64,000 nucleotides of DNA from Syntrophobacter sp. SbD1 (GCA_900290365.1 OMOE01000167.1:6305-70304), one strand, 5' to 3'. Shown: positions 1,291 through 64,000, counted from the first letter of the stretch. The notes: generated by a model not told the origin, from the letters alone. Translations and numbers: made by a program.

Positions 1291-3942
1291 GTGAGCAAAA
1301 CGATGAATGTCATTGACGGTCTGAGGAAGGTTTTTTCCTTCTGGTCGCCCACAAAGCCAAGTCTACCCTTTTCGGTGCTGTTTAAAAAGTTCAGGAGCAT
1401 CCTGGAGCGCAATAACCGGATCCTCGAACTTATGGCCGACATGGGTGACAAGCTCGGGGGCGAGTATGTCTTTGACCGTCAGTATGTTTTAGACATAAGC
1501 GAGAATATAGGAGATCTGGTCTTCAAGCTGATTTCAGACCTGTGCGTTATGACACAGACCGAGAATGTGGATCTTTTTATCTCATTCGAACGTATACAGA
1601 ACGACATCCAGGAGGAGCTGGCCGGAAGGCGTGCTTTTCCGATGATCAGGCCGGCGGTCCTGCTCGATGAACTCAACGGCGACCTCAATGAGGAGGTCGG
1701 AAACAAGTTCGCAAACATCGGGGACATCCGCAATACGCTGGGTCTGCCCACCATGGACGGGTTTGCTATAACGACCAGGGCATTTTTCGACTTCATGAAG
1801 GCAAACGGTCTTCTCAAGCACATAGAGACCTCTCTGGCAGCGGTGGACCTAAAGGATGAGACCGCGTTCGAAGCAATGTGCGATGATGTGCGCACGCGCA
1901 TTTTGAAGGGGACTATTCCCCGGCATGTAGTTTCAAGCATAAATGCCATGCTCGATGTCGTAAAGGGCAGAGCCGAGGTGAGATACCCGCGCTTTGCCGT
2001 AAGGAGCAGTGCCTGGGGCGAGGACAGCGAATTCAGTTTTGCCGGGCAATATGAAAGCGTGCTCAATGTCCCGGGGAATGGAATCGCGGAAGCCTACCGG
2101 CGGGTTATAGCCAGCGCCTACACGCCTGAGGCCTGGCGGTACAGGCTTCATCGAGGATTCCGGGAAAGTGAGATGGCCATGGCGGTCGGATGCCAGTTGA
2201 TGGTCGACGCCGAAGTCAGCGGCGCAATGTACACTTATGCCCCGCTTCCCCTTGAAAAGGAAGCCATGATGATAAGCGCCGCCTGGGGCCTCGGACCGGC
2301 AGTTGTGAGCGGTCTCGCCGAATCGGATACCTTCGTTTTGGACAGGATGCCACCACATAATATCCTTTCGAACGAGTCAGGGCACAAAGTGAGCAAAATG
2401 GTCATGGACCTGAACGGCGGCACGGCCTGGCGTGAAGTTCCCGGCCATCTGCAGGATAAACCGTGCCTTTCGGACGAATATATACAGAGGCTGGCCCAGG
2501 CGGCCATAATGATCGAAAGATACTACAGACGTCCCCAGGACGTTGAATGGGCCTTTGACAGCAAAGGCAATTTGTATATCCTCCAGTCAAGACCTCTCAA
2601 CGTTCGGCCGAACCAGCCGGACCGTCATCGGCTCTATATCGATCATGCGTCCCTTTCGGCGCAGGTTCTTTTTTCGGGAAAGGGCACCGTTGTACAGGGA
2701 GGTGTGGCGTCGGGAAAGGTCTATGTGGCCCGGGCAGATGATGATCTCAATGATTTCCCGTACGGGGCCATCCTGGTGGCCCGCTATACCTCTCCCAAAT
2801 ACTCCAAGATCATGCGCAAAGCCAGGGGCATACTAACCGACATTGGTTCGGCCACCGGGCATATGGCCACTTTGGCGCGCGAATACCGGGTCCCTACGGT
2901 GGTGGATACCGGAGTGGCCACCAAAGTTCTGAAGACGGGCGATGAGGTGACGCTGGATGCGATCCAGAACGTGGTCTACGAAGGAACGGTCAATGAACTG
3001 AGCCAATTTGAGATCACCCAGGAAGAGGTCTTCGAAGAATCGTATGAGTACCGGCTGCTAAAAAGGATACTCAAAAAAGTGAATCCCCTCAATCTGGTCG
3101 ATCCTCACAGCGAGTCTTTCAAGGCAGCCCGGTGCCTGACGTTTCATGACATCACACGGTTCGTTCATGAAAAAGCGGTTGAGAGACTCATAGATCTGAG
3201 CGAAAATTACCAGAACTATCACGACAGGACCCCCAAACGACTGGATTGCGACATTCCTCTGGGTTTGGTGATAATCGATATAGACAAGGGCACGAGCGCG
3301 CTTCCCGAGGCTCGGTCCATGACGGTCGAGCAAATTGAATCCGCACCCATGAAAGCGATGCTGCAAGGGCTTTCGGAAAGCGGAATGTGGGAAACCACCC
3401 CGGTTGCCGTGGACATGGGAAGCATGATGTCGAGCTTCACAAGAACTTTCAGCTCATCGCTGGCCGGCCCCGAGGATGTGGGCCGCAACCTGGCGGTGAT
3501 ATCGAACAACTACATGAATCTCCACCTTAGGCTCGGTTATCATTTCACCATCCTGGACGCCTACATTGGAGATGAACTCAACGATAATTACATTTATTTC
3601 CGGTTTCTGGGGGGTGTTTCAGATCTCCAGCGCCGTTCGCGCCGGGCCAGGTTTATAGCCGAGGTCATGGAGTGCTACGATTTCCGTGTCGAAGTACATG
3701 GAGATTTGATTGTGGGCAGGCTTAAAAAAATGTCCCGCGACAGGATGGTCTCGAGAATGAAGGTGCTTGGCGGCCTGATAGGTTATACTCGCCAACTCGA
3801 TATCAGCATGATAAGCGATGAACGGATCGGCCAGCATGTGGCCGAATTCATGCACAGAATTGACGTTCTTACGGAGGTGGGAGATGACGTCCCAATGTGC
3901 CGGCTGCCAGCAACAAAAGACGCAGATTCTTATACTCGATGA
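1291..3942 (+). CDS. PpsA/PPDK-like phosphohistidine enzyme, paralogue 1 (N-helical region + ATP-grasp + swivel His domain + unassigned ~300-aa C-domain)
   Basis: VRSSAWGEDSEFSFAGQYESVLNV and PQDVEWAFDSKGNLYILQSRP match the PPDK_N ATP-grasp. GSATGHMATLAREYRVPTVV is the PEP-utiliser mobile domain (His codon 2860-2862). I recognise no PEP/pyruvate TIM-barrel motifs in the last ~330 aa. Start is GTG 1291 or ATG 1303. Confidence 0.85.
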   Translation: MSKTMNVIDGLRKVFSFWSPTKPSLPFSVLFKKFRSILERNNRILELMADMGDKLGGEYVFDRQYVLDISENIGDLVFKLISDLCVMTQTENVDLFISFERIQNDIQEELAGRRAFPMIRPAVLLDELNGDLNEEVGNKFANIGDIRNTLGLPTMDGFAITTRAFFDFMKANGLLKHIETSLAAVDLKDETAFEAMCDDVRTRILKGTIPRHVVSSINAMLDVVKGRAEVRYPRFAVRSSAWGEDSEFSFAGQYESVLNVPGNGIAEAYRRVIASAYTPEAWRYRLHRGFRESEMAMAVGCQLMVDAEVSGAMYTYAPLPLEKEAMMISAAWGLGPAVVSGLAESDTFVLDRMPPHNILSNESGHKVSKMVMDLNGGTAWREVPGHLQDKPCLSDEYIQRLAQAAIMIERYYRRPQDVEWAFDSKGNLYILQSRPLNVRPNQPDRHRLYIDHASLSAQVLFSGKGTVVQGGVASGKVYVARADDDLNDFPYGAILVARYTSPKYSKIMRKARGILTDIGSATGHMATLAREYRVPTVVDTGVATKVLKTGDEVTLDAIQNVVYEGTVNELSQFEITQEEVFEESYEYRLLKRILKKVNPLNLVDPHSESFKAARCLTFHDITRFVHEKAVERLIDLSENYQNYHDRTPKRLDCDIPLGLVIIDIDKGTSALPEARSMTVEQIESAPMKAMLQGLSESGMWETTPVAVDMGSMMSSFTRTFSSSLAGPEDVGRNLAVISNNYMNLHLRLGYHFTILDAYIGDELNDNYIYFRFLGGVSDLQRRSRRARFIAEVMECYDFRVEVHGDLIVGRLKKMSRDRMVSRMKVLGGLIGYTRQLDISMISDERIGQHVAEFMHRIDVLTEVGDDVPMCRLPATKDADSYTR

Positions 3943-4285
3943 TGAGCCTATCGTGTGCAAGAGGCTCAGACCTGCTTTCCAAAAAGCGGGCTACGAGGTG
4001 GAAACCTTTACCGACAGCGCTTCCGCTATGGCCAGGATAGAGGAAAAGAAGTTCGATATCATCATTACCGACCTGAAGATGAAGGGCGTGGACGGAATGC
4101 ATTTTCTGGAGCGGATCAAGGAGATTGCGCCCGATACCGGCGTTATAGTCATAACCGGATTTGCCACCTCTGAAACTGCCGGGGAGTCATTCCGGAAAGG
4201 GGCATTCGATTTTGTGGCCAAACCGTTCAAGTTGAACGACATAATCGATACTGTCCGGCGGCTGGAGGGAAATCGGAAGAGATGA
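3884..4285 (+). CDS. Stand-alone CheY-like response regulator receiver domain
   Basis: ILILDDEP ... DIIITDLKMKGVDG ... VIVITG ... VAKPF supplies the acidic pair, phospho-Asp, T/S and Lys positions. GGAGGTG RBS lies 4-5 nt before ATG 3884. The gene overlaps the end of paralogue 1. Confidence 0.8.
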   Translation: MTSQCAGCQQQKTQILILDDEPIVCKRLRPAFQKAGYEVETFTDSASAMARIEEKKFDIIITDLKMKGVDGMHFLERIKEIAPDTGVIVITGFATSETAGESFRKGAFDFVAKPFKLNDIIDTVRRLEGNRKR

Positions 4286-4374
4286 AAGGGTTAGAAATGG
4301 TGGTTCGTACATAAAGACCCTTTTGCGTGATACGAAGAACGCCGCCGCCATGGAAGGCGGCGCTACCATGGTAG

Positions 4375-6897
4375 ATGAAAGTTCCTATGCGCCTTCCGTT
4401 CATCTCACACAGGCGACAGAAGCCTTCCTCCGATCAGGGGCTGGAATGGGTCCGATCCCTGTTTGCAAAATTCCAGCGTATTCAGAAATACAATACCAGG
4501 GCCTTGGAAGTAATGGCCGAAATGGACCGTGCCCTGGGCGGAGAGTACATTTTCGACCGCGCCTTCCTTGAAAGCTCCGTTCGAGAGTTGAGCGGTCTCG
4601 CATACCAGGTTGTCTACAGCCTGAACGCCATGTCGCAGAACGGATACGTCGCTCTCTACGACAGGTATCAAAGCATAAAAGGCGTTCTGGATGACATCCT
4701 TGCCGGGGGACTGGGACCTTTTGGATCGAGTCTTGCCCTGCCGTATTCAGTACTTGGCCTTGAAATGGAGCCTCTGGCGGGGGCCTTGAATGTGTGCCTG
4801 GCCGAGGCGCGAAATCGCCTGGACATTCCCGCCCCCGACGGCTTTGCGGTGACGGTGACCGGCTGCTCGCAAATGATGGCCGCAGGCGGGGGGGATTTTG
4901 ATATTTTTGCTAAACCGGCGTCGCTCGAGGTTGCTGATTTCCCCCCGGAATTGGTCGAGGCGATTAACCACCAGATGGAGTCGCTGTTTGCAAGATGCGG
5001 AGGCCCGGTTCCTCTGATCGTGAGAATCTGTCCGGCTGCCGCAAACAACCAGACCCGGACCGAGACGGTCCGGCTGCCCTCGCAGGTGTTTACCAACGTT
5101 GGCTCCGATGAACTCCTGGAAACCTGCCGAATGGCCCTGGACAAATATTTGGCTTCATCCGAAGGACCCGATCCCGCGCCGGTGGCCCTGGCGGTCCATG
5201 AGGCTGTGCCCGCCCAGGTTGCCGGCTCAATTTCTCTTGTGACTTCGCCCGATTCGCCTTCGGGAGGACTTTTTTGTATAACGGCCTGGCCGGTGGGTGC
5301 GCCTGACAGCAGGGAGACCTTTTTTCTTCGCCGGACCTACCCATTCGATCCCGTTGAATCGGAAATCAAAGCGAAACCTTACAACGAGCGGATCTACCCC
5401 GGTGTGCATCCCCTGTCGATCACGCCAAAAGGCCTCTACAGAGGTTCTGCCCTCCTTGGTCCCTCTTTTCTCAGGGGCATTGCGGCATGCGCCTCGGCTT
5501 TTGAGCGGATTGTCGGCTGCCCCCAGGATCTCGATTGGGTCAGGGGCGATGCCGCGCGGCCGGTTATAGTGAATGTGAGGGCGGCGGGCGAGCTTGACGG
5601 TTCGATGGAGAGCGATTTCGATGCGCCGTTTTCCGAAGAGGAGGATGAGGGAAATTGGGTCGAGGACGCCGAGGTGATGCTTGCCGGGGGTGAGACCGCG
5701 CAGACGGGTATAGCAGCCGGTCCGGTGGTACATGTTCGTGAAAGCGAAATGGATCTGTTCCCCCATGGCGCCGTCGCCGTTGTCAGATATGCATACCCCA
5801 GTTTGAGCGCCATCATGAGCAGGGCTTCCGCTGTAGTGACCGAAATCGGCGCCTCCATCGGGCACCTGGCCACAATAGCCAGAGAACTGCGCATACCCGC
5901 CATCTTTGGCGCCGCAGGGGCAATGCAGAGATTGCCTGAGGGGACCGAAGTCACAGTTGACGCCGGGGAAAAGAGGGTCTACCGGGGGATAGTCGAGCCT
6001 CTGTTGGCCTCCCGGGCAACCGGCACGGAACTGTATCCGAGCGATCCGGAATACGTTACACTCCGCCGCCTGCTGCGCTGGATATTGCCCCTGGAACTCA
6101 TCGATCCTGAGTCCAGTACTTTTTGTGTGGATAATTGCCGCACTTATCACGACGTTATTCATTTTTCCCACGAGAGATCCATTGAGGAACTTCTAAAGAT
6201 CCAGGAGCACGGCGCCGGGCTGAAAAGTCCGTATGTTCGCAAACTCGGGATCGATACGCCGATCGATCTGTTCGTGCTCGATATTGGCGGCGGGGTGTCC
6301 CCGGGGGCCGGGGCTTGTGTGGAATTCGATGACGTCATTTCAAAGCCGTTCCTTGCATTCCTTAATGGGCTGACCCTCAAGGAAGTCTGGAACCGGGACC
6401 CGGGATCCCTCAACCTCAGAGGAATAATCTCCGGGCTTGACCGTACGTTTTCGGCCATGATGGAACTGCCTGAATACGCCGGCAGAAATCACGCAATCCT
6501 GGCGGAAAACTACATGAACGTCGGCCTTCGGCTCGGTTATCATTACAGTGTGATCGACAGCTATCTCTGCGGCAATGTAAATCAAAATTACGTCTATTTT
6601 CGTTTCGCAGGCGGTTTTGCCGATGAGAATCACCGGCGGCGCAGGGCTGAGCTTATAAGGTCTATCCTGGACCAACTGGGCTTCAAGGTGAGAATCAAAG
6701 GCGATCTCGTTCTGGCAAAGCTCAAACTGGTGGACAACCGGGAGGTAATCTCGGCATTAAAGGTCCTGGGAGAGCTTACGGGATTTACCCGGCAGATTGA
6801 TCTTGCGATGGACTCGGAAGATAAAATTGAAGAATTCGCCAGGCTATTCAATGAAAAATCCGGCCGCGCAGGCAAAGAGGAGAAAAACGGTGTCTAG
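4375..6897 (+). CDS. PpsA/PPDK-like paralogue 2 with a degenerate ATP-grasp but an intact swivel His domain and the shared C-domain
   Basis: GASIGHLATIARELRIPAIFG (His codon 5863-5865). C-domain NYMNVGLRLGYHYSVIDSYLCGNVNQNYVYFRFAGG parallels paralogue 1. The ATP-grasp signature positions read PLIVRICPAAANNQ and CPQDLDWVRGDAARPVIVNVRAAG. Confidence 0.75.
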   Translation: MKVPMRLPFISHRRQKPSSDQGLEWVRSLFAKFQRIQKYNTRALEVMAEMDRALGGEYIFDRAFLESSVRELSGLAYQVVYSLNAMSQNGYVALYDRYQSIKGVLDDILAGGLGPFGSSLALPYSVLGLEMEPLAGALNVCLAEARNRLDIPAPDGFAVTVTGCSQMMAAGGGDFDIFAKPASLEVADFPPELVEAINHQMESLFARCGGPVPLIVRICPAAANNQTRTETVRLPSQVFTNVGSDELLETCRMALDKYLASSEGPDPAPVALAVHEAVPAQVAGSISLVTSPDSPSGGLFCITAWPVGAPDSRETFFLRRTYPFDPVESEIKAKPYNERIYPGVHPLSITPKGLYRGSALLGPSFLRGIAACASAFERIVGCPQDLDWVRGDAARPVIVNVRAAGELDGSMESDFDAPFSEEEDEGNWVEDAEVMLAGGETAQTGIAAGPVVHVRESEMDLFPHGAVAVVRYAYPSLSAIMSRASAVVTEIGASIGHLATIARELRIPAIFGAAGAMQRLPEGTEVTVDAGEKRVYRGIVEPLLASRATGTELYPSDPEYVTLRRLLRWILPLELIDPESSTFCVDNCRTYHDVIHFSHERSIEELLKIQEHGAGLKSPYVRKLGIDTPIDLFVLDIGGGVSPGAGACVEFDDVISKPFLAFLNGLTLKEVWNRDPGSLNLRGIISGLDRTFSAMMELPEYAGRNHAILAENYMNVGLRLGYHYSVIDSYLCGNVNQNYVYFRFAGGFADENHRRRRAELIRSILDQLGFKVRIKGDLVLAKLKLVDNREVISALKVLGELTGFTRQIDLAMDSEDKIEEFARLFNEKSGRAGKEEKNGV

Positions 6898-9566
6898 CAT
6901 CGTCGCTCGATTGTTTCAAAAATTGCGCGAGCGGCGGCTGACTCGTGCGGCAAAATTCCTTGACGACCTCAAGGTCCGGTATCACACTTTCCGGATTCTC
7001 CTTGCCAATAATGAGTACTCGCTGGATCTGATGAGGTCGCTTGACCTGTCACTGAGGTCCGGGAGTTCCGAAATGCCGGAGATAGCCGAAGAGCTTCTAA
7101 GCGTCACCTACGAGCTTGTCGACGGTCTGAACAGGCTGAGCGGGGACCGTCACCAAAGACTTTATGAAACGCATTACAGCCTTGCGGGTGCTATCCGCAA
7201 CGAACTGGACGCCATCATGGCGGTCCAGTCCCATGCGCCGGCTTTTGTTTTCCTGGATCATCCGGCAGCCGATCTGCGGGAAGAGGTCGGAGGCAAGGCT
7301 GCCGGCCTGGCCCAGTTGCGCAAGGCCGGCTTTCCCGTTCCTGACGGTTTTGCCGTTACGTCGAACTCCTGCGAGGGAATACTATCGGCCAACGGTCTCG
7401 ATCTTTTTATTCGGCAGAGGGCGCAAAGACTGGAGGCCGGGTACAACCGAGGCACGGACTTCGAGGCTGACGCAGAGGAGATTCGCCTCCGCATTCTCGA
7501 CGCGGTTTTTCCGCAAGACTTCGAACAGGAGCTTCGGCGCGCTTACGAACGGCTCACCGGTTCGGGGGAAACGGCCATATCCGTGCGCAGCAGCGCTTCG
7601 GTCGAAGACCGGATTGAACACTCCTTTGCCGGTCAGTTCAAGAGCATACTTAACGTGATTTCATTCGATGGATTGAAGGACGCGTTAAGGGAAGTGATTG
7701 CAAGCAACTACAGCCCCGGGGCGATTTCCTACCGCCTTCACGCCGGACTGTCCCTGGCCAGGCACGACATGGCCGTTTTATGTCAGCGGATGATCCGGGC
7801 AGAGTCGGCAGGGATACTGTTCACTATAGATCCGGCAGACCCGGAAAACGGGCGGATGCTTATCAGCGCCGTTCCCGGGCTGGGAATAACGGCCGTGAGC
7901 GGGAGCGCTCCGGCGGATCTCTACCGGCCCTCGAGGGAACCAACAGACGCAGGCCCGATGGCGGATTGGGCGCAAGTTGCCAAAAAGACCCACCGCGCTG
8001 ATCCCGGGTTTAATGGAGGCATCGAGGAGCGGGAGCTTCCCGAAAATGAACAGGTCCTCCCCGTGCTTTCCGAGGACCGGGTCCACTCCCTCGTTAGCAT
8101 CGGCCGCCGGATCGAAAGCCTGGTCGGAAAACCGCAGGATATCGAATGGGCATTTTCGCAGGAAGGCGAGCTTGTGATCCTGCAGTCAAGGGATATCCGG
8201 CTTGCCCTCAAAAGCAGGCAGGCAGCGGAGGCTGCGCGGGGAGAAGTCCTTCTTAGAGGAGGGGTATGCGCCTCGCCGGGCCGGTGCGTGGGCAAGGTCA
8301 AAGTAGTTCATTCGACCCGTGATTTTGAGGACTGGCGTAAAGATCCTTCACGCGAGCCGGGTATCCTGGTGCTTCCACAGAGTATGTCGGATGCCGCAGG
8401 CTTCGTCCCGGAATTCGAAGGCGTGGTTGTGGATTTGGGCAACCCTGCCGATCACCTGGCCGTAACGGCAATTCGAAGGCGTGGTTGTGGATTTGGGCAA
8501 CCCTGCCGATCACCTGGCCGTAACGGCTCGGGAGTACTCCCGTCCGATGATGACCGGGGCCGGTAAGGCGACCCAAACGCTTCGGGACGGCCAGTGGGTT
8601 ATCCTGGACGCGGACATGGCCATGGTCTTCAAGGCCCCCGAGGAGGCCTGGTCGGCCGCCCAACGGGTTGGCAACGCTAATATGGAAGGCGGTTCGCAAA
8701 CCCGCAGGGCCGGGCGCAATGTCGCCTCACGCCCAGAGGCAGCCCGGCTCAGACAGTTGATCGAGCCTTTGAATCTGACCGACGCATACGGGCCAACGTT
8801 TTCCATACAGGAGTGCCGCTCTCTGCATGATCTGATCCGCTATAGCCATGAAATGGCTGTCCTGGCAATGTTCCAGACCGGAGACGACATCCTGGAGTCG
8901 GCGGAGGTGCTGGTGCGGCGACTCGAGGGCGCCGTACCGCTGCATTTCCTGATTATCGATCTGGGCGGCGGTATCGCTTCTGAAAGTAATAAGTTCAGGG
9001 TCCGGCTTGAAGATATCCTGTCGCTCCCCATGCTGGCGCTCTGGAAGGGGATACTGACGCCGGGGCTCAGATGGAACCTGCCGCCCCCCGCAGCCATGGT
9101 TTCCGGGCTCATGTCCCGATCCATGTTCGACTCGGGCAGCGCCAGGCCCATCGGCCAGCAGAACTACGCCTTGATTACACGGGATTATCTGAATCTGAAC
9201 GCGCGCGTTGACTATCATTTCGCCATGGTTGACGCGGTTTGCGGATCAAATCCGAGAGAGAACCATATCCGTTTCAGGTTCAAGGGGGGCGGGACGACCG
9301 CTGTGCAGCGCGAGCGGCGTGCGCTGTTCATAACCGAAGTGCTCGAAGCGAACAATTTTTTTGTAGACCAGCGGGGCGACCTGGTGACTGCGTCCATCCT
9401 GGAAACACAGCAGTCTGAAACCGAGGACCGGCTTGTCATGCTGGGAAGGCTGCTCGGATTTAGCAGGCTGCTCGATGCGACCATGCGCGACGACACCGTC
9501 CACAAAAAAGTGGCGCGTGCGTTTATTGATGGCGATTATGCGCTGACAACAGTGGGTCAGGAGTGA
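6890..9566 (+). pseudogene. PpsA/PPDK-like paralogue 3, split into two ORFs (to 8566, and 8481-9566) by a 58-bp tandem duplication
   Basis: VRSSASVEDRIEHSFAGQFKSILNV, PQDIEWAFSQEGELVILQSRD, GNPADHLAVTAREYSRPMMTG, and C-domain DYLNLNARVDYHFAMVDAVCG..NHIRFRFKGG. A GTG at 6890 overlaps the stop of paralogue 2 (GTGTCTAG), with GAGGAG 7 nt upstream. Deleting one 58-bp copy joins the frames (frame arithmetic checked) into one ~872-codon ORF. Confidence 0.8.
8412..8527. repeat. Perfect 58-bp tandem duplication (8412-8469 = 8470-8527)
   Basis: Read directly: aattcgaaggcgtggttgtggatttgggcaaccctgccgatcacctggccgtaacggc occurs twice with no mismatch and exactly 2.0 copies. The flanking bases differ. Confidence 0.97.
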
Positions 9567-14053: not shown

Positions 14054-14398
14054 ATGATTCACATGTCAGAGAAAGCCGAAACTGTTTTGCAGGATTATTT
14101 CAAGGAAAAGCAGATCACTCCGATCCGGATATTCCTCCAGACCGGTGGCTGAGCGGGTCCATCCCTTGCAATGGTTCTGGACGAACCAAAAGAAACTGAT
14201 GATGTTTATAAGCTGAACGGCTTTACCATGCTGGTCGATAAGGACCTTCATGAGAAGACCAAGGATATTACAGTCGATTATGTATCCTACGGGATGGGTT
14301 CCGGCTTCCGGGTGGCATCGGAAATCCCGATTGCAGGCGCCGGCGGAGGCGGGGGCCCCGTCGTGCAGTTGCTAGACAGGACCAAGGTCCGAGGGTAA
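14054..14398 (+). CDS. HesB/IscA-like protein with an in-frame UGA at 14150-14152 (candidate selenocysteine)
   Basis: GAAAGGAG RBS 8 nt before ATG 14054. Reads MIHMSEKAETVLQDYFKEKQITPIRIFLQTGG-TGA-AGPSLAMVLDEPKETDDVYKLNGFTMLVDKDL..., so the UGA sits where the family has the Cys of GGC.G. The downstream 75-aa ORF (14171-) is in the same frame and has no RBS of its own. Confidence 0.6.
14153..14185 (+). promoter_or_regulatory. Possible bacterial SECIS hairpin immediately 3' of the UGA
   Basis: GUCCA...UGGAC and CCAU...AUGG pairings are possible within gcgggtccatcccttgcaatggttctggacgaacc. Not folded computationally. Confidence 0.3.
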
Positions 14399-15007: not shown

Positions 15008-15220
15008 CTTCCTCCTCCTGATTTAGCGAAAAATTTGATTATGAAATAATTTCTTCTGGATCAAATAAGATCAAATAGTTCAAATGGGAGGGAAAGTAAA
15101 ATTTTTGGATGAAAATTCCAATCAAAAAGTGGTAACTATGCCTCCAAACGGGATTAAGGACAAAGGTCCACAAAAAAATTGGTCACGAAGAACGCGAAGG
15201 GTACACGATCGACAACCCGT

Positions 15221-15344
15221 CCGCATTCCGCCGACCTGTTCGAGGGGCGAACCCTCACCTTGTTCGGGTTCCGCGTTAAACGCCGCATTCCGCCGACCTG
15301 TTCGAGGGGCGAACCCTCACCTTGTTCGGGTTCCGCGTTAAACG
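15221..15344. repeat. Perfect 62-bp intergenic tandem duplication (15221-15282 = 15283-15344), with a degenerate partial third unit near 15390-15420
   Basis: ccgcattccgccgacctgttcgaggggcgaaccctcaccttgttcgggttccgcgttaaacg occurs twice with no mismatch. Confidence 0.95.
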
Positions 15345-15605
15345 TTCGAACCTACGTTAGACGCTTATAGTTCGGCGTCTGATCTTAAGCCCTCACTTCG
15401 TTCGGACTTCGCGTTAGCCATTGCTGAGCGCGTTTAAATGCTTCAAGCTTGGCGTCCGATCTTCTGTGAGGACGCGTGAGGACGCATGGTCGATCTTGAG
15501 GCACACAAAGGGGAAATCTTTTGAAATTGATACGAATTATTTTTCAATTTCTTCATGCTCTTCGTGTATCCTCCGTGCTCTTCGTGTCCAAAAAAGGAAC
15601 TTGAG

Positions 15606-16149: not shown

Positions 16150-16284
16150 GGATTTACAGGATTAAGAGCAAAAGAATGGAAAATCAGGGCAGGGCCTTTT
16201 TTGACAGGATTTACAGGACTAAGAGCAAAAGAATGTCGCGCGGGCCTTGCAAAACAGTTTGTTTTTAATCCTGTAAATCCTGTC
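16150..16284. repeat. Dispersed word-repeat family copies (GGATTTACAGGATTAAGAGCAAAAGAATG x2, then the inverted TAATCCTGTAAATCCTGTC)
   Basis: Same words as at 38139-38167, 39340-39367 and 46436-46464. Confidence 0.8.
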
Positions 16285-17114: not shown

Positions 17115-19521
17115 TCATTGCCGGTTCGAAGCTGATGCGATTGATCTTCCCGCGCGCAACTGCTTGCAGAAATCTTCCACCAGAGTTCGCTTCTGATAGC
17201 CGGGGTAAAGCTCGATTACCTTTTCGAAAGCCGCTATAGCTCCTTCTGTATCTCCCGCCTCGGATGAAAAGAATCCGAGCGCCAGCCATGCGTTCGAGTC
17301 TTCCGGGTCGCCTTTTAGCACTTTTCTTGCCGCTTCTACGGCGTGGTCCCCGTCACCTCTGGCATAATTATACCACCCCTTGAGCAGCCGGGCGTCACGA
17401 GAACCGGGAAAAATTTGCAGGGCAGCATCCAGTCGATTTTCCCCGAGTGCCTGGAAAACCTTCGGCAAATGTTTCTGTTGCACTAAAAATGCCACAACCA
17501 TGTCGAAATTGAATCTGGAAAAAGGATTTCGTACATATTTTTGGAAGGAGTTCCATTTTTCTTTTTGAGCGCTATTCTGGGCATCTTCCTTTTGGAGGTT
17601 TTCCATTTCTGTTTTCAGGTGCGGATCACCGGGGTCGTTTGCGTACTCCCGCTCAATTATCTCACGGGCATATTGCGCCTCCCCGTGTTTCTTGAATTCT
17701 TTGGCGACCCAGAGTCCAGGGGGCAGGTCTCCGGGGTCGAGTATGCCGTCATGGTTCGGGTCTAAGCCCTGCGGGCCGAACTCGGCAAGAATTGCCCTTG
17801 CGGTCATTTCAACCAGGCCCTTCTTGTAGAAGGAATTATCGGTCAGTTGCACGTACTTGAGCGCTTCGAGCGTCCATCTGTATGCTTCTTCGGGCTTCTT
17901 TGCGATAATGCATGCCTGGGCCAGGTTCAGGCAAAGATTCGGAAGGGGTCCTCCATCGAGCCCGTTGACCTTATCTTTTAAAAATTCCTCGTCGCGTTCG
18001 ATCGCTTCGTCAATTCTCCCCAGTTTTATAAGGGCTATGGTTATGGCGTTCTGGGCAAGAGCATCGGTCTCGCGTCCCTTTCTTCCGAGTTCAATTGATC
18101 TCTCGGCGTATTTTATGGCGTCCTCGTACCGGTCGACTGTGCAAAGCACATTGGCGAAGTCGGAATTTGCCCGCGGACTGTTGGGAGCTTTTGCTACCGC
18201 ATCGTAATGGATCGTGACCGGGTCTTCCCAAGCGCCGTTCCGGGAGAATGTCAGAAGGGTAAGGCACGCGGCGACAATGAGAAGGGATGAGCAGGCAGCC
18301 TTTGCGAATTCGGCTTCCGGGAGCCGGCGTGCGGCCTGCCGGAAAACAGTCACAAGAATGGCGGTTATTGAAAGATAAAAGCCTATCGAGGGCAGGTAGA
18401 GCCTGTGTTCGAAAACCAGTTCCAATGGAATGATCGTCGATTCGATTACGAGATTCAAAAAGAACCAGGCAATTCCGAATGTGATCACAGGAAATCGCCT
18501 TCGGAACCTGATCGCGAGGAAAATGAGGGCGCCGATCACAAGCAGAGAAGGAAGCGTAGTAAGAGGGCTTAAAAGCGAAGTGGAAATCTCGACTTCATGG
18601 TCCATAGACAGGCGGGCCGGGTTTGGCCAGAGAAGAAGCGACATGTACCATACGACTGCCCTTCCTTCGGTGAGCAGGCGCTCAATCAGATTGAAATCCC
18701 TCTTGGCGTAACCGCTGAGAAGTTCAGGCAATACGACCGCGAAGGCATAAAAGGAGGATGAAAGCAGTGCGGCAGCAGTAGCCGCGCGGACTTTCCAGCC
18801 GGTTTTCCGGCACAGGGCCCAGGCTTTTTTCAGCCAGGCGGAATCGAAAAACCAGATATCGGTTATGGCCAGCGCAACCGGCAGGACCGCCGAGTTTTCT
18901 TTCGAAAGAAAGCTACAGAGGGAGCTAAGCGCGCAAAGAAAGAAGAAAAAGATGGCGCTCCTTTTTTTGTCCCCCGAAAGAAGGCGCGCCTTTATAAAGC
19001 ACGCCACGCTCAGCGTAAAAAAAAGCGCCTGTATGGAAGCCATGCGCTGAACGAGGTATGTGACGGCGCTTGTCTGAAGTGGGCTCAAGGCCCATACGGC
19101 GGCGGCGCAGAGCGGCGGCGGCGCAGAGTGGAAGAAGGCCTGCAATTTCATGGATTGGCCCTTCTGCGCCTCTGTTCTTTCCGGCTGCAAGAACCTGCCT
19201 GAAGAACCAAAAGACTGCCACGAACGCCAGCAAGTGGATCAGCAGATTCACGGCATGAAAATAAATGCCTTTGCTGTGACCCAGAGAGTGATTGAGCGCC
19301 AGGGTGATTACGGGCAGAAATCGCGTCCAGCCGAATTTTGACTGAGAAAGCGAAAGAATGCTCGAAACCGAGACTGAATCCAGATAGAGGGCTTTGTCAT
19401 ATATGAATGATTGAAAATCATCGAGGAAAGGCGGCGAGGTGAAAGTGTTCGAGTAAGCGGAAATAATCATCAAAACGATGAAAAAGGCAAGAATGTGAGG
19501 CAGCGCTTTTTTCGCCCGCAT
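17115..19521 (-). pseudogene. Polytopic membrane protein with C-terminal TPR repeats (TMTC/PMT_2-like glycosyltransferase-type family), frameshifted by a 16-bp tandem duplication
   Basis: The N-terminal ORF (MRAKKALPHILAFF...FLDDFQSF...) and the 691-aa ORF are offset by one frame. Removing 19113-19128 gives ...AGLLPLCAAAVWALSPLQTSAVTYLVQRMASIQALFF..., continuous and family-like. Confidence 0.75.
19097..19128. repeat. Perfect 16-bp tandem duplication (cggcggcggcgcagag x2)
   Basis: Read directly: 19097-19112 = 19113-19128, exactly 2.0 copies. Confidence 0.97.
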
Positions 19522-19572
19522 ACCTGTCCTTTCCCCCAATTGCCCGGGCGAAAAAATAGAAAGAATAGATAA

Positions 19573-19609
19573 CACAAAGAATGCCGGTATCATACCGGCA
19601 TTCTTTGTG
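19573..19609 (-). terminator. Rho-independent terminator downstream of pilA
   Basis: Perfect 18-bp inverted repeat cacaaagaatgccggtat / ataccggcattctttgtg, followed on the minus strand by a T-rich tract (ttatctattctttctatttttt). Confidence 0.8.
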
Positions 19610-19636
19610 CTCGGTCTTCTTTTGCTTGCAGCAGAT

Positions 19637-20104
19637 TTATTGTGCGCCTGCCAAGCCCATGTTTGCGGCAAGCGTACCACCAAAAGTCCAGCCGGTAATT
19701 ACTTGCGCATTGTTTCCAAGAATCGGCGATGCGGTAATAGTCTGGTTATACAGGGACGAGAGCTCAGTGCAGCCCGCACCCACGATTGCGAAGGTGATTT
19801 TGAAGTTAGAAGTGGCGCCGGCGGCGGAAGTTACCGTCGGGGTAAAGCAATGGGTGTTGGCATCCGTGAACATGGCATTTACGGTTGCACCAGCGCCAGG
19901 GAACATCTGCTGAAAGCTGAAGTAAGTCGCCAGATCGGTTTGGATTGAGTGAATTCCGGGGATAACCTTGCTGGTCAGGCGCGCTTTCTGAATATACTTT
20001 TGATAGTACGGGACAGCGACCGCAGCCAGGATGCCGATGATGGCAACGACGATCATAAGTTCCACCAATGTAAAGCCTTTGCTCTCTCTCATTCTGATAA
20101 ACAT
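19637..20104 (-). CDS. pilA: Type IV major pilin
   Basis: Prepilin leader [10 protein letters not shown] followed by [38 protein letters not shown] 6 nt upstream of the ATG. Confidence 0.9.
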
Positions 20105-38084: not shown

Positions 38085-38167
38085 CACCACAGAGACACAG
38101 AGGACACGGAGAAAAATTGTAGCTTTTTTCTTTATTTTTAATCCTGTAAATCCTGTTAATCCTGTCC
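38085..38167. repeat. Word-repeat module inside the livM-livG spacer
   Basis: caccacagagacacagaggacacggagaa ... taatcctgtaaatcctgttaatcctgtcc. Confidence 0.8.
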
Positions 38168-38187
38168 AAATCTTTGGCGAATCGCTT

Positions 38188-39223: not shown

Positions 39224-39390
39224 CACCTCCGGCCCAGAAGCACTGCCGGGGCAGGCTGCGAGGCACAGGGCGCAGAGAAAAGGGAATGGGCATGCAGGAA
39301 AAACCTTAAGCAAAAAGGGATCTGGCTTTTAGTTTTTCTTAATCCTGTAAATCCTGTTAATCCTGTCTAAGCACTTCTCTGTGTCTCCGT
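39224..39390. repeat. Word-repeat modules inside the livH-livM spacer
   Basis: A ~54-nt block at 39224-39277 is homologous to 40357-40411. taatcctgtaaatcctgttaatcctgtc lies at 39340-39367, followed by ttctctgtgtctccgtggtg. Confidence 0.8.
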
Positions 39391-42431: not shown

Positions 42432-44123
42432 CTAGTACATATCATCCATGCCGCCCATGCCACCCATTCCACCCATACCGCCCATGCCGCCCATTCCTCC
42501 CATGCCACCCATACCGCCTCCGGGGGGCATCATTGAGGAACCTTTCTTCTTGGGCTTTTCAGCGATGATGGCTTCGGTTGTGAGAAGCAGCGATGCGACG
42601 CTTGCAGCATTCTGGAGGGCGAACCGCACCACCTTGGTGGGGTCTATAACGCCTGCTTCCACCAAGTCGCCGTATTCATCGGTTTCCGCATTGTAGCCGT
42701 ATGATCCCTGGCCTGCCTTTACCTTCTCGACGACAACCGAACCTTCGCGGCCTGCATTGTCTGCGATCTGGCGGATCGGCGCCTCGAGCGCACGCTTTAC
42801 AATGTTGAGGCCAAAGCGTTCCTCGCCTTCGAAGTTCAACTTTTCGAGCGCCGCTACGCAGCGCAGAAGGGCAACGCCTCCGCCCGGGACAATTCCTTCT
42901 TCCACGGCGGCCCTGGTAGCATTGAGCGCATCTTCGACGCGCGCTTTCTTTTCCTTCATCTCGGTTTCGGTGGCAGCGCCGACCTTTATCACCGCAACTC
43001 CGCCGACCAGCTTCGCAAGTCTTTCCTGAAGTTTTTCACGGTCGTAATCCGAGGTCGTCTCTTCTACCTGGGCGCGAAGCTGCTTCACACGGCCTTCTAT
43101 AGCGTCGCGGGAACCCGCTCCGTCTACGATTGTCGTGTTGTCTTTGGTGATGTTGATGCGCTTGGCCGAACCCAGGTCCTTCAATGTAATGCTTTCGAGC
43201 TTGATGCCGATGTCTTCGGAGACTACCTTGCCGCCGGTAAGAATAGCGATATCTTCAAGCATTGCCTTGCGCCGGTCGCCAAACCCGGGGGCCTTAACGG
43301 CGCTCACCTTCAAGGTTCCCCTCAGCTTGTTTACCACCAGGGTCGCCAGGGCTTCGCCATCCACGTCTTCTGACAGTATCAGAAGCGGCCGCGCCATTTT
43401 TGCGATCTGTTCGAGGATGGGCAGTATGTCTTTCATGTTGCTGATCTTCTTTTCATTGATCAGGATCAGGGGTTCTTCGAGAACCACTTCCATCCGCTCG
43501 GCATCGGTCACAAAATAGGGAGAAATGTAGCCGCGGTCGAACTGCATGCCCTCAACGATATCAAGGGTCGTTTCCATGCTCTTGGCTTCTTCGACCGTGA
43601 TGACGCCTTCCTTGCCAACCCTGTTCATGGCTTCGGCAATAATGTCGCCTATAGTGGCGTCATTGTTGGCGCTTATCTTTCCGACCTGGGCAATCTCTTT
43701 TTGGTCCTTAGTCGGTTTGCTGAGCCTTTTGAGTTCCTCGACGACTGCTGCAACCGATTTTTCGATTCCGCGTTTGAGGCCCATCGGGTTGTGTCCGGCG
43801 CTCACCAGTTTCGCGCCTTCGTGAAAAATGGATTGCGCGAGGATCGTGGCGGTAGTTGTGCCGTCGCCTGCGACGTCAGAGGTTTTGCTCGCCACTTCTT
43901 TAACCATCTGGGCGCCCATGTTTTCGAACTTGTCCTCCAGTTCGATTTCCTTTGCGACCGTTACCCCGTCCTTGGTGATAGTGGGCGATCCCCAGGATTT
44001 TTCCAGCACCACGTTGCGCCCTCTCGGGCCAAGGGTCACCTTGACCGCATTGGCCAGGATGTCAACTCCCTTCAATAGTTTGTCTCTTGCCTTAACATCA
44101 TATTTGATTTCTTTAGCCGACAT
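42432..44123 (-). CDS. groL: Chaperonin GroEL (Cpn60) with an extended GGM tail
   Basis: [39 protein letters not shown]..., DGTTTATIL, and a C-terminal (GGM)x8. Confidence 0.98.
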
Positions 44124-46330: not shown

Positions 46331-46435
46331 AAAAATACCCGCTGTTCTTTTGTAGCAAGGGGAGGGCTTTATGCCCTCCCGGAGCACCCGATTTGAACGC
46401 AACTTTGATTTAAAAGTTGAGTTTTTCCTTATTTC

Positions 46436-46464
46436 TAATCCTGTAAATCCTGTTAATCCTGTCC
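46436..46464. repeat. Word-repeat copy (TAATCCTGTAAATCCTGTTAATCCTGTCC)
   Basis: Identical to 38139-38167 and to 39340-39367. Confidence 0.9.
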
Positions 46465-46599
46465 AAGTCTTTAGTAATTGCTTCCGTACCCCCAACACGA
46501 TATCTTTTTTTAAAGTTATCAGACTAATACGCTTTTGGATAGAGACAGATGTGCCTGCGCTGATATAACATATGACGACTACAACCAAGGAGGGGTCGA

Positions 46600-63002: not shown

Positions 63003-63341
63003 ATGACTAAAATAGAATGCATCCTGCGGCCGGATAGGATTTCGGAAGTGAGCAAAATCCTTGGCAGCCTGGGGATCAAAGGGATGACCGTAACAGAGGT
63101 GATCGGCTGCGGATTGCAGAAAGGCCACATCCGGGATGACTGGAACACCGAGTTCAAGATCAATCTGCTGCCGAAAACCAAAATAGAGATGGTGGTCTCC
63201 GACAGCATGGTTGATGACGTAGTAAACGCCGTAATCAAAATTTCCCGCACTGGCGAAATCGGAGACGGCAAAATTTTCACCTATCCCCTTGGTAACGCCA
63301 TACGGATTCGCACGGGTGAAACCGGCGAGGATGCAATCTAG
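63003..63341 (+). CDS. P-II family signal protein paralogue with a non-canonical T-loop (Thr49, Phe51)
   Basis: MTKIECILRPDRISEV...GMTVTEVIGCGLQKGHIRDDWNTEFKINLLP...TGEIGDGKIFT...IRIRTGE. Confidence 0.88.
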   Translation: MTKIECILRPDRISEVSKILGSLGIKGMTVTEVIGCGLQKGHIRDDWNTEFKINLLPKTKIEMVVSDSMVDDVVNAVIKISRTGEIGDGKIFTYPLGNAIRIRTGETGEDAI

Positions 63342-64000
63342 GGTTTTCTCAATAAAAGCAGAAGAATCGCAATCAGAACGGCAGCCAACACTGCCCCTCC
63401 GTATATCAGCAGGTTATTCCGCTTGGTGGGGAGGACAGCGGCCATCGGCGGGTCGGGTTCATTCACCCATTTGAGGTCTGCCGGGTCGGGTTCATTCACC
63501 CATTTGAGGTCTGCATTTTCAGGAAAGCGCAAATCATTTGCCATCTGCTCCGCCGAGTCGTAGCGTTCATCCTTTCTTCTGCGCAACGCTCTGCGAATGG
63601 CCGCCCATATCCCTGGATGCAAACCTTTTACCCCCGTGAGCGGTTCAGGGTCTTTGGTCATGTGCAGGTACATGACCGTCAGCGGATTATCCCCGGTAAA
63701 CGGAGGAGATCCGCTTAAAAGGTTATACATGAGGCAGCCGACTGCATAGATATCGCTTTTTGCAGTGCCGCGTTCTCCTTTGATCTGTTCGGGGGCCATG
63801 TATTCGGGGGTCCCCATGAGACCCGAAAAACCGCGCCAGGTAACCCGGGGCGCCCCTTCCATGAGCGCGATGCCGAAATCGAGAATTTTCAAATGGCCAT
63901 CCGGGCCCAGCACAAGGTTTTCCGGTTTTATATCACGGTGATACACTCCCCTTTCATGGCAGTAGTGTAGCGCATCCAACAGGTTTGCCACTATCTTTAC
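63338..64000 (-). CDS. Hanks-type Ser/Thr protein kinase, C-terminal part with TM anchor; 5' end lies outside the window
   Basis: HRDIKPENL, ILDFGIA, GTPEYMAPEQ, and a C-terminal TM LLIYGGAVLAAVLIAILLLLL. The frame is open to nt 64000. Confidence 0.9.
   Translation of the reverse strand, partial: VKIVANLLDALHYCHERGVYHRDIKPENLVLGPDGHLKILDFGIALMEGAPRVTWRGFSGLMGTPEYMAPEQIKGERGTAKSDIYAVGCLMYNLLSGSPPFTGDNPLTVMYLHMTKDPEPLTGVKGLHPGIWAAIRRALRRRKDERYDSAEQMANDLRFPENADLKWVNEPDPADLKWVNEPDPPMAAVLPTKRNNLLIYGGAVLAAVLIAILLLLLRKP
63449..63514. repeat. Perfect 33-bp in-frame tandem duplication inside the kinase gene
   Basis: 63449-63481 = 63482-63514, giving ADLKWVNEPDP twice in the juxtamembrane linker. Confidence 0.95.

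Follow-up and report, generated by a model that had tools for sequence, protein, structure and literature searches.

Whether a gene that stands split in a deposited genome is also split in the organism is the question raised by a perfect 58-bp tandem duplication at 8412–8527 of a 64,000-nucleotide stretch of Syntrophobacter sp. SbD1 (GCA_900290365.1 OMOE01000167.1:6305-70304; hereafter the window, whose coordinates are used throughout). The duplication breaks the third of three paralogous genes related to PEP synthase, and an initial annotation had listed three possible origins for it, namely that it arose very recently, that it is one state of a reversible ON/OFF switch, or that the assembly created it. 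SbD1 belongs to a set of 13 MAGs recovered from Schloppnerbrunnen II peat by co-assembly in CLC Genomics Workbench with a word size of 63 and with scaffolding on (PMC6018796). It comprises 182 scaffolds and 248 contigs (PMC6018796), numbers that indicate that the scaffolder was active, and neither the main text nor the supplement describes a second assembler or a re-assembly (PMC6018796). The authors themselves considered a truncated aprB in another of the MAGs to be a pseudogene or an assembly error (PMC6018796).

A perfect two-copy duplication interrupts paralogue 3

The three paralogues lie on the plus strand. Paralogue 1 (1291/1303–3942) encodes an intact PpsA-like protein (SPF50148.1, 879 aa), and a receiver-domain gene sits between it and paralogue 2 (4375/4387–6897), which is also intact and retains its His domain, with a degenerate ATP-grasp domain. 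Paralogue 3 is represented by two plus-strand ORFs. In the N-terminal fragment (6851–8566; SPF50152.1, 571 aa, annotated as "conserved hypothetical protein"), a PPDK_N ATP-grasp and the N-terminal half of a His swivel domain precede an out-of-frame tail; the C-terminal fragment (8481–9566), whose deposited version, SPF50153.1 (339 aa, "(fragment)"), starts at ATG 8547, contributes the remainder of the His domain and a conserved ~300-aa C-terminal domain. In Pfam searches, the upstream fragment matched PPDK_N and the downstream fragment the second half of the PEP-utilizers swivel, and each of paralogues 1 and 2 matched both domains in a single chain. Products of the window matched SPF50148.1 and SPF50153.1 of Syntrophobacter sp. 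SbD1 exactly, with SPF50152.1 as a cluster mate, and the three accessions are located together on one 95,127-bp SbD1 contig. Exact protein look-ups with paralogue 2 from ATG 4375, P0125, and the pilin from its second ATG returned no record.

String comparison of the 58-mers at 8412–8469 and 8470–8527 gave no mismatches, and TRF reported a period of 58, 2.0 copies and 100% matches at 8412–8527, in agreement with the initial annotation. The unit is AATTCGAAGGCGTGGTTGTGGATTTGGGCAACCCTGCCGATCACCTGGCCGTAACGGC. The base before the first copy is g and the unit ends in c, and the base after the second copy is t and the unit starts with a; with both flanks differing from the unit, there are exactly two copies and neither a partial third copy nor flanking microhomology. 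At 8469/8470, the junction between the copies reads ...CCGTAACGGC on the left and AATTCGAAGG... on the right, or in longer form ...CACCTGGCCGTAACGGC and AATTCGAAGGCGTGGTT... A perfect 58-bp tandem repeat in 64 kb cannot be a product of chance.

The His codon (CAC) of the ADHLAV motif is present in both copies, at 8453–8455 and 8511–8513. Because 58 is not a multiple of three, the upstream ORF leaves its frame, as had been claimed, and the original frame is picked up by ORF 8481–9566. The break does not fall exactly at the catalytic histidine, as first described: the frame is lost 14 nt 3′ of the His codon, and the upstream ORF runs on to a stop at 8566, its out-of-frame tail ending in ...ADHLAVTAIRRRGCGFGQPCRSPGRNGSGVLPSDDDRGR. 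That tail had been recognized correctly in an ORF given as 6797/6890–8566, the start of which has to be revised, since the likely start of paralogue 3 is ATG 6851. Deletion of one copy restores an uninterrupted ORF, colinear with the other two paralogues as predicted; its length is 872 aa if counted from GTG 6890 and 885 aa if counted from ATG 6851.

Independent assemblies carry one copy and an intact gene

Independent contigs were obtained via P0033, P0123, and neighbouring genes. Three of them, L002 (JGI 3300010379), L003 (Logan SRR6193119), and L004 (JGI 3300032160), match the window with 99.9–100% identity over 3.7–7.3 kb on either side of the duplication, contain one 58-bp unit each, and each encode an intact 885-aa protein, P0123, which starts at ATG 6851. 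The repaired 872-aa protein of the window is identical to P0123 from residue 14 on when the printed sequences are compared by eye. The same single-copy state was found in a sister MAG (L001/L031; MFD04752.bin.2.21, Microflora Danica) that shares 96% DNA identity and represents the species in GTDB, so that the comparison with sister genomes proposed in the initial annotation gives the same result as L002–L004; the exact string of left flank, one unit, and right flank is present in all four contigs, L001–L004. The 90% cluster of the N-terminal fragment includes the 885-aa P0123 from JGI/IMG and Logan, and the frameshifted products, P0122 and P0121, occur in the SbD1 record only, among ~15 billion proteins searched. 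Because the independent assemblies are single-copy with an intact gene, we regard the second copy as an artefact. Copy 1 (8412–8469, plus strand), as the sole copy in the independent assemblies, is taken to be genuine sequence, and copy 2 (8470–8527, plus strand), which is identical to it and absent from L001–L004, to be the putative extra; the choice of which copy counts as extra is arbitrary.

SRR6193119 and the JGI metagenomes are probably libraries of the CLC co-assembly, given the 100% identity and the statement that the samples were sequenced by JGI (PMC6018796). Searching the literature for sample and run identifiers yielded just a BioProject number in the source papers.

A real and very recent duplication, fixed in the SbD1 population and pseudogenizing paralogue 3, would explain why the two-copy sequence stands in the deposited record and why the 58-bp copies have not diverged, and the two intact paralogues could buffer the loss of the third. 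Against it stand the three independent assemblies of the same population, 99.9–100% identical, each with one copy and an intact ORF, and the confinement of the frameshifted product to the CLC record; the notion of a very recent event is not borne out by them. The evidence from other sites in the window, given below, also disfavours fixation, which we consider very unlikely.

A reversible ON/OFF switch would require that one- and two-copy molecules coexist and that the CLC co-assembly caught the OFF state. Tandem duplications are generally known to collapse often through recombination, this one is placed in a catalytic domain, and the sister MAG is also frameshifted ~40 bp downstream of it. However, the two-copy state and its frameshifted product are found in the CLC-derived record alone, and the sister frameshift reads as an indel error in a gap-rich assembly. 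Furthermore, the Logan contig, which we take to have been built with k = 31, passes the 58-bp site unbranched, implying that the run contained few or no junction k-mers. Spontaneous tandem duplications and phase-variable switches likewise consist of identical head-to-tail copies that shift the frame and are reversible in principle by recombination, but real tandem duplications are polymorphic or shared among relatives, whereas two copies occur here in only one assembly, and unrelated sites are affected. There is a very slim chance that the locus is such a switch, and the narrower proposition that a minority of SbD1 cells carry the duplication as a reversible OFF state, the co-assembly having caught OFF and the per-sample assemblies ON, is quite improbable.

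The frameshift in the sister MAG is a 1-bp insertion at ~6000 of L001, corresponding to ~8571 of the window. It was considered as a case of convergent inactivation of paralogue 3, and this was rejected: aligned to the window, the sister contig has 16 gaps per 5.9 kb (~1 indel per 370 bp), and its paralogue 2 is also truncated. The insertion is probably an indel error of the sister assembly.

Two scans were made for the junction between the copies. In the metagenome-contig collection the junction had no matches, and neither did the one-copy control, though L002 and L004 carry the latter; the collection does not include these JGI metagenomes, and this null result carries no weight. The genome-contig scan for the junction also gave no matches, in a collection where the species is represented by the Microflora Danica MAG and not by SbD1, and that null has no weight either. 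P0002 was considered as a protein of SbD2, a sibling MAG made with the same assembler, and was rejected, as it belongs to another ENA assembly with "contig_" names.

Three further perfect duplications in the window are absent elsewhere

Scanning the window for perfect tandem repeats identified four, with units of 58, 62, 16, and 33 bp and each present in exactly 2.0 copies. The 62-bp duplication (15221–15344) lies in the sodC-lspA intergenic spacer and is represented by one copy in the JGI contigs L005 and L006. The 16-bp duplication (19097–19128) frameshifts a minus-strand membrane protein ORF into two pieces, 18925–19683 and 17115–19190, which on repair give a protein of 850 aa; the exact one-copy string was found in eight contigs (L012–L015 and L017–L020), and L016 and the sister contig L001, which is 91% identical there, also do not have the 16 bp in alignment. 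The 33-bp duplication (63449–63514) is in frame, doubling ADLKWVNEPDP in a minus-strand protein kinase-like ORF (63338–63991), and is single-copy in L008 and L009 (JGI 3300000567 and Logan SRR6193119). Over the four sites, all 16 spanning contigs contain the one-copy string and none contains the two-copy string or the junction; their flanks are 99.9–100% identical to the window at the 58-, 62-, and 33-bp sites. All four unit lengths are at most 62, which is k−1 for k = 63, and one is exactly 62. One Logan contig, L007, ends within the 62-bp unit and a Logan contig also ends 12 nt from the 16-bp unit, which suggests that these are natural graph breaks.

These sites bear on each of the biological readings. 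If the 58-bp duplication were fixed in the population, it would be expected neither that three sibling duplications within the same 64 kb likewise vanish elsewhere nor that unit lengths are limited to the k−1 of the assembler. A locus-specific switch is disfavoured by look-alike duplications elsewhere, one of them intergenic and the other two in genes for a membrane protein and a kinase; the ON/OFF state suggested initially finds its two-copy form in the CLC-derived record only. It could instead be argued that the duplication is real and was collapsed by the independent short-read assemblies, since short-read assemblers can merge repeats longer than k. However, two tandem copies of 58 bp add novel junction k-mers as well as a cycle, at which contigs would break rather than become one-copy, and assemblers using large k would resolve a 58-bp repeat from spanning reads. 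Moreover, the 16-bp unit is below any k in use and yet is single-copy in eight assemblies made from different samples. The merging of two real copies into one is not plausible at 58 bp and cannot happen at 16 bp, and we give this explanation next to no credence. Even taken jointly, all the biological readings are improbable.

The density of such repeats was compared with a background set drawn from other genomes: 78 loci (1.21 Mb) that contain relatives of the paralogue gene and whose names derive from other assemblers. Perfect duplications with a period of at least 30 number two in the 1.21 Mb and three in the 64 kb of the window, making those of ≥30 bp ~28 times commoner in the window (Poisson P = 1.8e-4, n = 3). 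Exact 2.0-copy duplications with a period of at least 16 number two in the background and four in the window (P = 4.8e-6, n = 4). A partial third copy accompanies 8 of the 10 perfect repeats in the background set.

A defect of another kind is located at 14355/14356, where the window lacks the 8 bp CGGCTGTT carried by L005–L007; this loss is a probable join artefact of opposite sign. It falls in a gene for an IscA/HesB-family selenoprotein (14054–14398) that we observed to contain an in-frame TGA (14150–14152) in a GG-U-AG motif and that scores 112 bits against NF038090 (cut-off 85) with C substituted for U. The loss exchanges the Cys-rich end of the selenoprotein, ...GGCSPSCSC, for a frameshifted tail.

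Other length differences and repeats in the window were also noted. Around the 62-bp site, ~409 bp of the sodC-lspA spacer (15177–15585) are missing in the 96%-identical sister and present in the 100%-identical JGI contigs, which is an indel difference between lineages. A dispersed short repeat of AATCCTGTA 9-mers (TTAATCCTGTAAATCCTGTTAATCCTGTC) occurs in at least four intergenic places (16150–16283, 38125–38175, 39326–39376, and 46422–46472), with inverted copies at 16150–16235; possible identities are a REP- or MITE-like element and an array of binding sites. A 9-bp repeat array at 42438–42518 encodes the C-terminal (GGM)n tail of a GroEL whose gene, on the minus strand (42432–44123), is an ordinary one.

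Unmerged contig overlap as the probable source

We estimate a probability of about 0.93 that copy 2 is a spurious tandem repeat of the 58-bp unit, arising from a contig overlap that the CLC assembler left unmerged. Of the three initial options, the artefact is the only one with support, and three observations carry it: the one-copy state in all independent assemblies, the recurrence of the defect at three sibling sites, and the bound of k−1 on unit length.

The step within the assembler that would produce such duplications is probably a join made after graph construction. Adjacent nodes or unitigs of a de Bruijn graph share k−1 bases, 62 for k = 63. Contigs that stop at graph branch points would overlap their neighbours by up to k−1 bases, and a post-graph step of CLC that uses read pairs might butt such contigs together with the overlap left unmerged. 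An overlap of 58 nt between two contig ends would then appear twice, perfectly repeated and with arbitrary boundaries, and where a few bases are missing, the same joining step would yield a small deletion; the 8-bp loss at 14355/14356 fits imprecise joins of either sign. The 58-, 33-, and 16-bp units, which are shorter than k−1, are accounted for only if contig ends are assumed to have been trimmed ahead of the join.

In draft assemblies, false duplications at contig joins likewise consist of two, and only two, identical copies whose boundaries are arbitrary and free of microhomology; their units measure at most k−1, they occur several to a scaffold, and they are missing from other assemblies of the same DNA. 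Unlike them, the joins proposed here bear no N-gap mark, there being 0 N in the window. For CLC 5.5.1 we infer this behaviour, documentation of which was not found; a literature search on CLC tandem-duplication or "contigs joined" artefacts retrieved no paper on it, and the join mechanism therefore draws on the k−1 signature together with general knowledge of de Bruijn graphs.

The restored protein is a PpsA relative with a distinct C-terminal domain

In SbD1 itself, paralogue 3 is a single intact gene of 885 aa, in whose product an ATP-grasp domain and a phospho-His swivel precede an uncharacterised C-terminal domain. The repaired protein has an N-terminal ATP-grasp domain (PF01326) followed by a swivel domain (PF00391) with the phospho-His, which aligns with the phospho-His of PEP synthases (TSHAAIVSREL in 8a8e and TCHAAIIAREL in 2ols). 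The combination of a PPDK_N ATP-grasp and a PEP-utilizers swivel is shared with PEP synthase (PpsA, pyruvate, water dikinase), rifampin phosphotransferase, and PigC/RedH; in contrast to PEP synthase, the repaired gene is without the PEP-utilizers_C TIM barrel. The NCBIfam PEP synthase models cover just the first two domains of the repaired gene and score far below their curated cut-offs, with 243.7 bits for NF005057 (cut-off 598) and 235.9 bits for TIGR01418 (cut-off 739.75), indicating that the trio are not PpsA orthologues.

The C-terminal domain of ~300 aa is common to all three paralogues and contains the motifs LNLTDAYGPTFS, DLGGG, NYIRFRFKGGG, and QRERRA. Pfam gave no matches to the C-terminal region of the paralogues at E ≤ 10, the PEP/pyruvate-binding TIM barrel (PF02896) being absent, and a sequence-profile search of the domain against the PDB found no match. 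A Foldseek search of the PDB with an AF2 model, confident across most of the domain, likewise found no match at E ≤ 0.001. The gene order of the three paralogues (1303–9566) is kept in an 82%-identical relative, and the trio are uncharacterised PpsA relatives that are widespread in Syntrophobacteraceae and other sulfate-reducer lineages.

Consequences

Owing to the artefact, paralogue 3 is split in the public record into SPF50152.1 and SPF50153.1, which are artefactual pieces of one 885-aa protein and call for a database correction. At least three other features of the scaffold are corrupted in a similar way: the 850-aa membrane protein is split, the kinase carries an 11-residue insertion, and the IscA/HesB selenoprotein has an altered C terminus. 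A perfect tandem duplication of exactly two copies, with a unit of at most k−1 and missing from other assemblies, provides a quality-control signature that can be screened for cheaply, and the screen is applicable to the other 12 MAGs of the co-assembly and to other CLC-scaffolded MAGs. For the biology of SbD1 the weight of the duplication is small, because the gene is intact in the organism. The PpsA-like trio, with its unmatched C-terminal domain, is the sole biologically interesting item nearby, and its interest is independent of the duplication.
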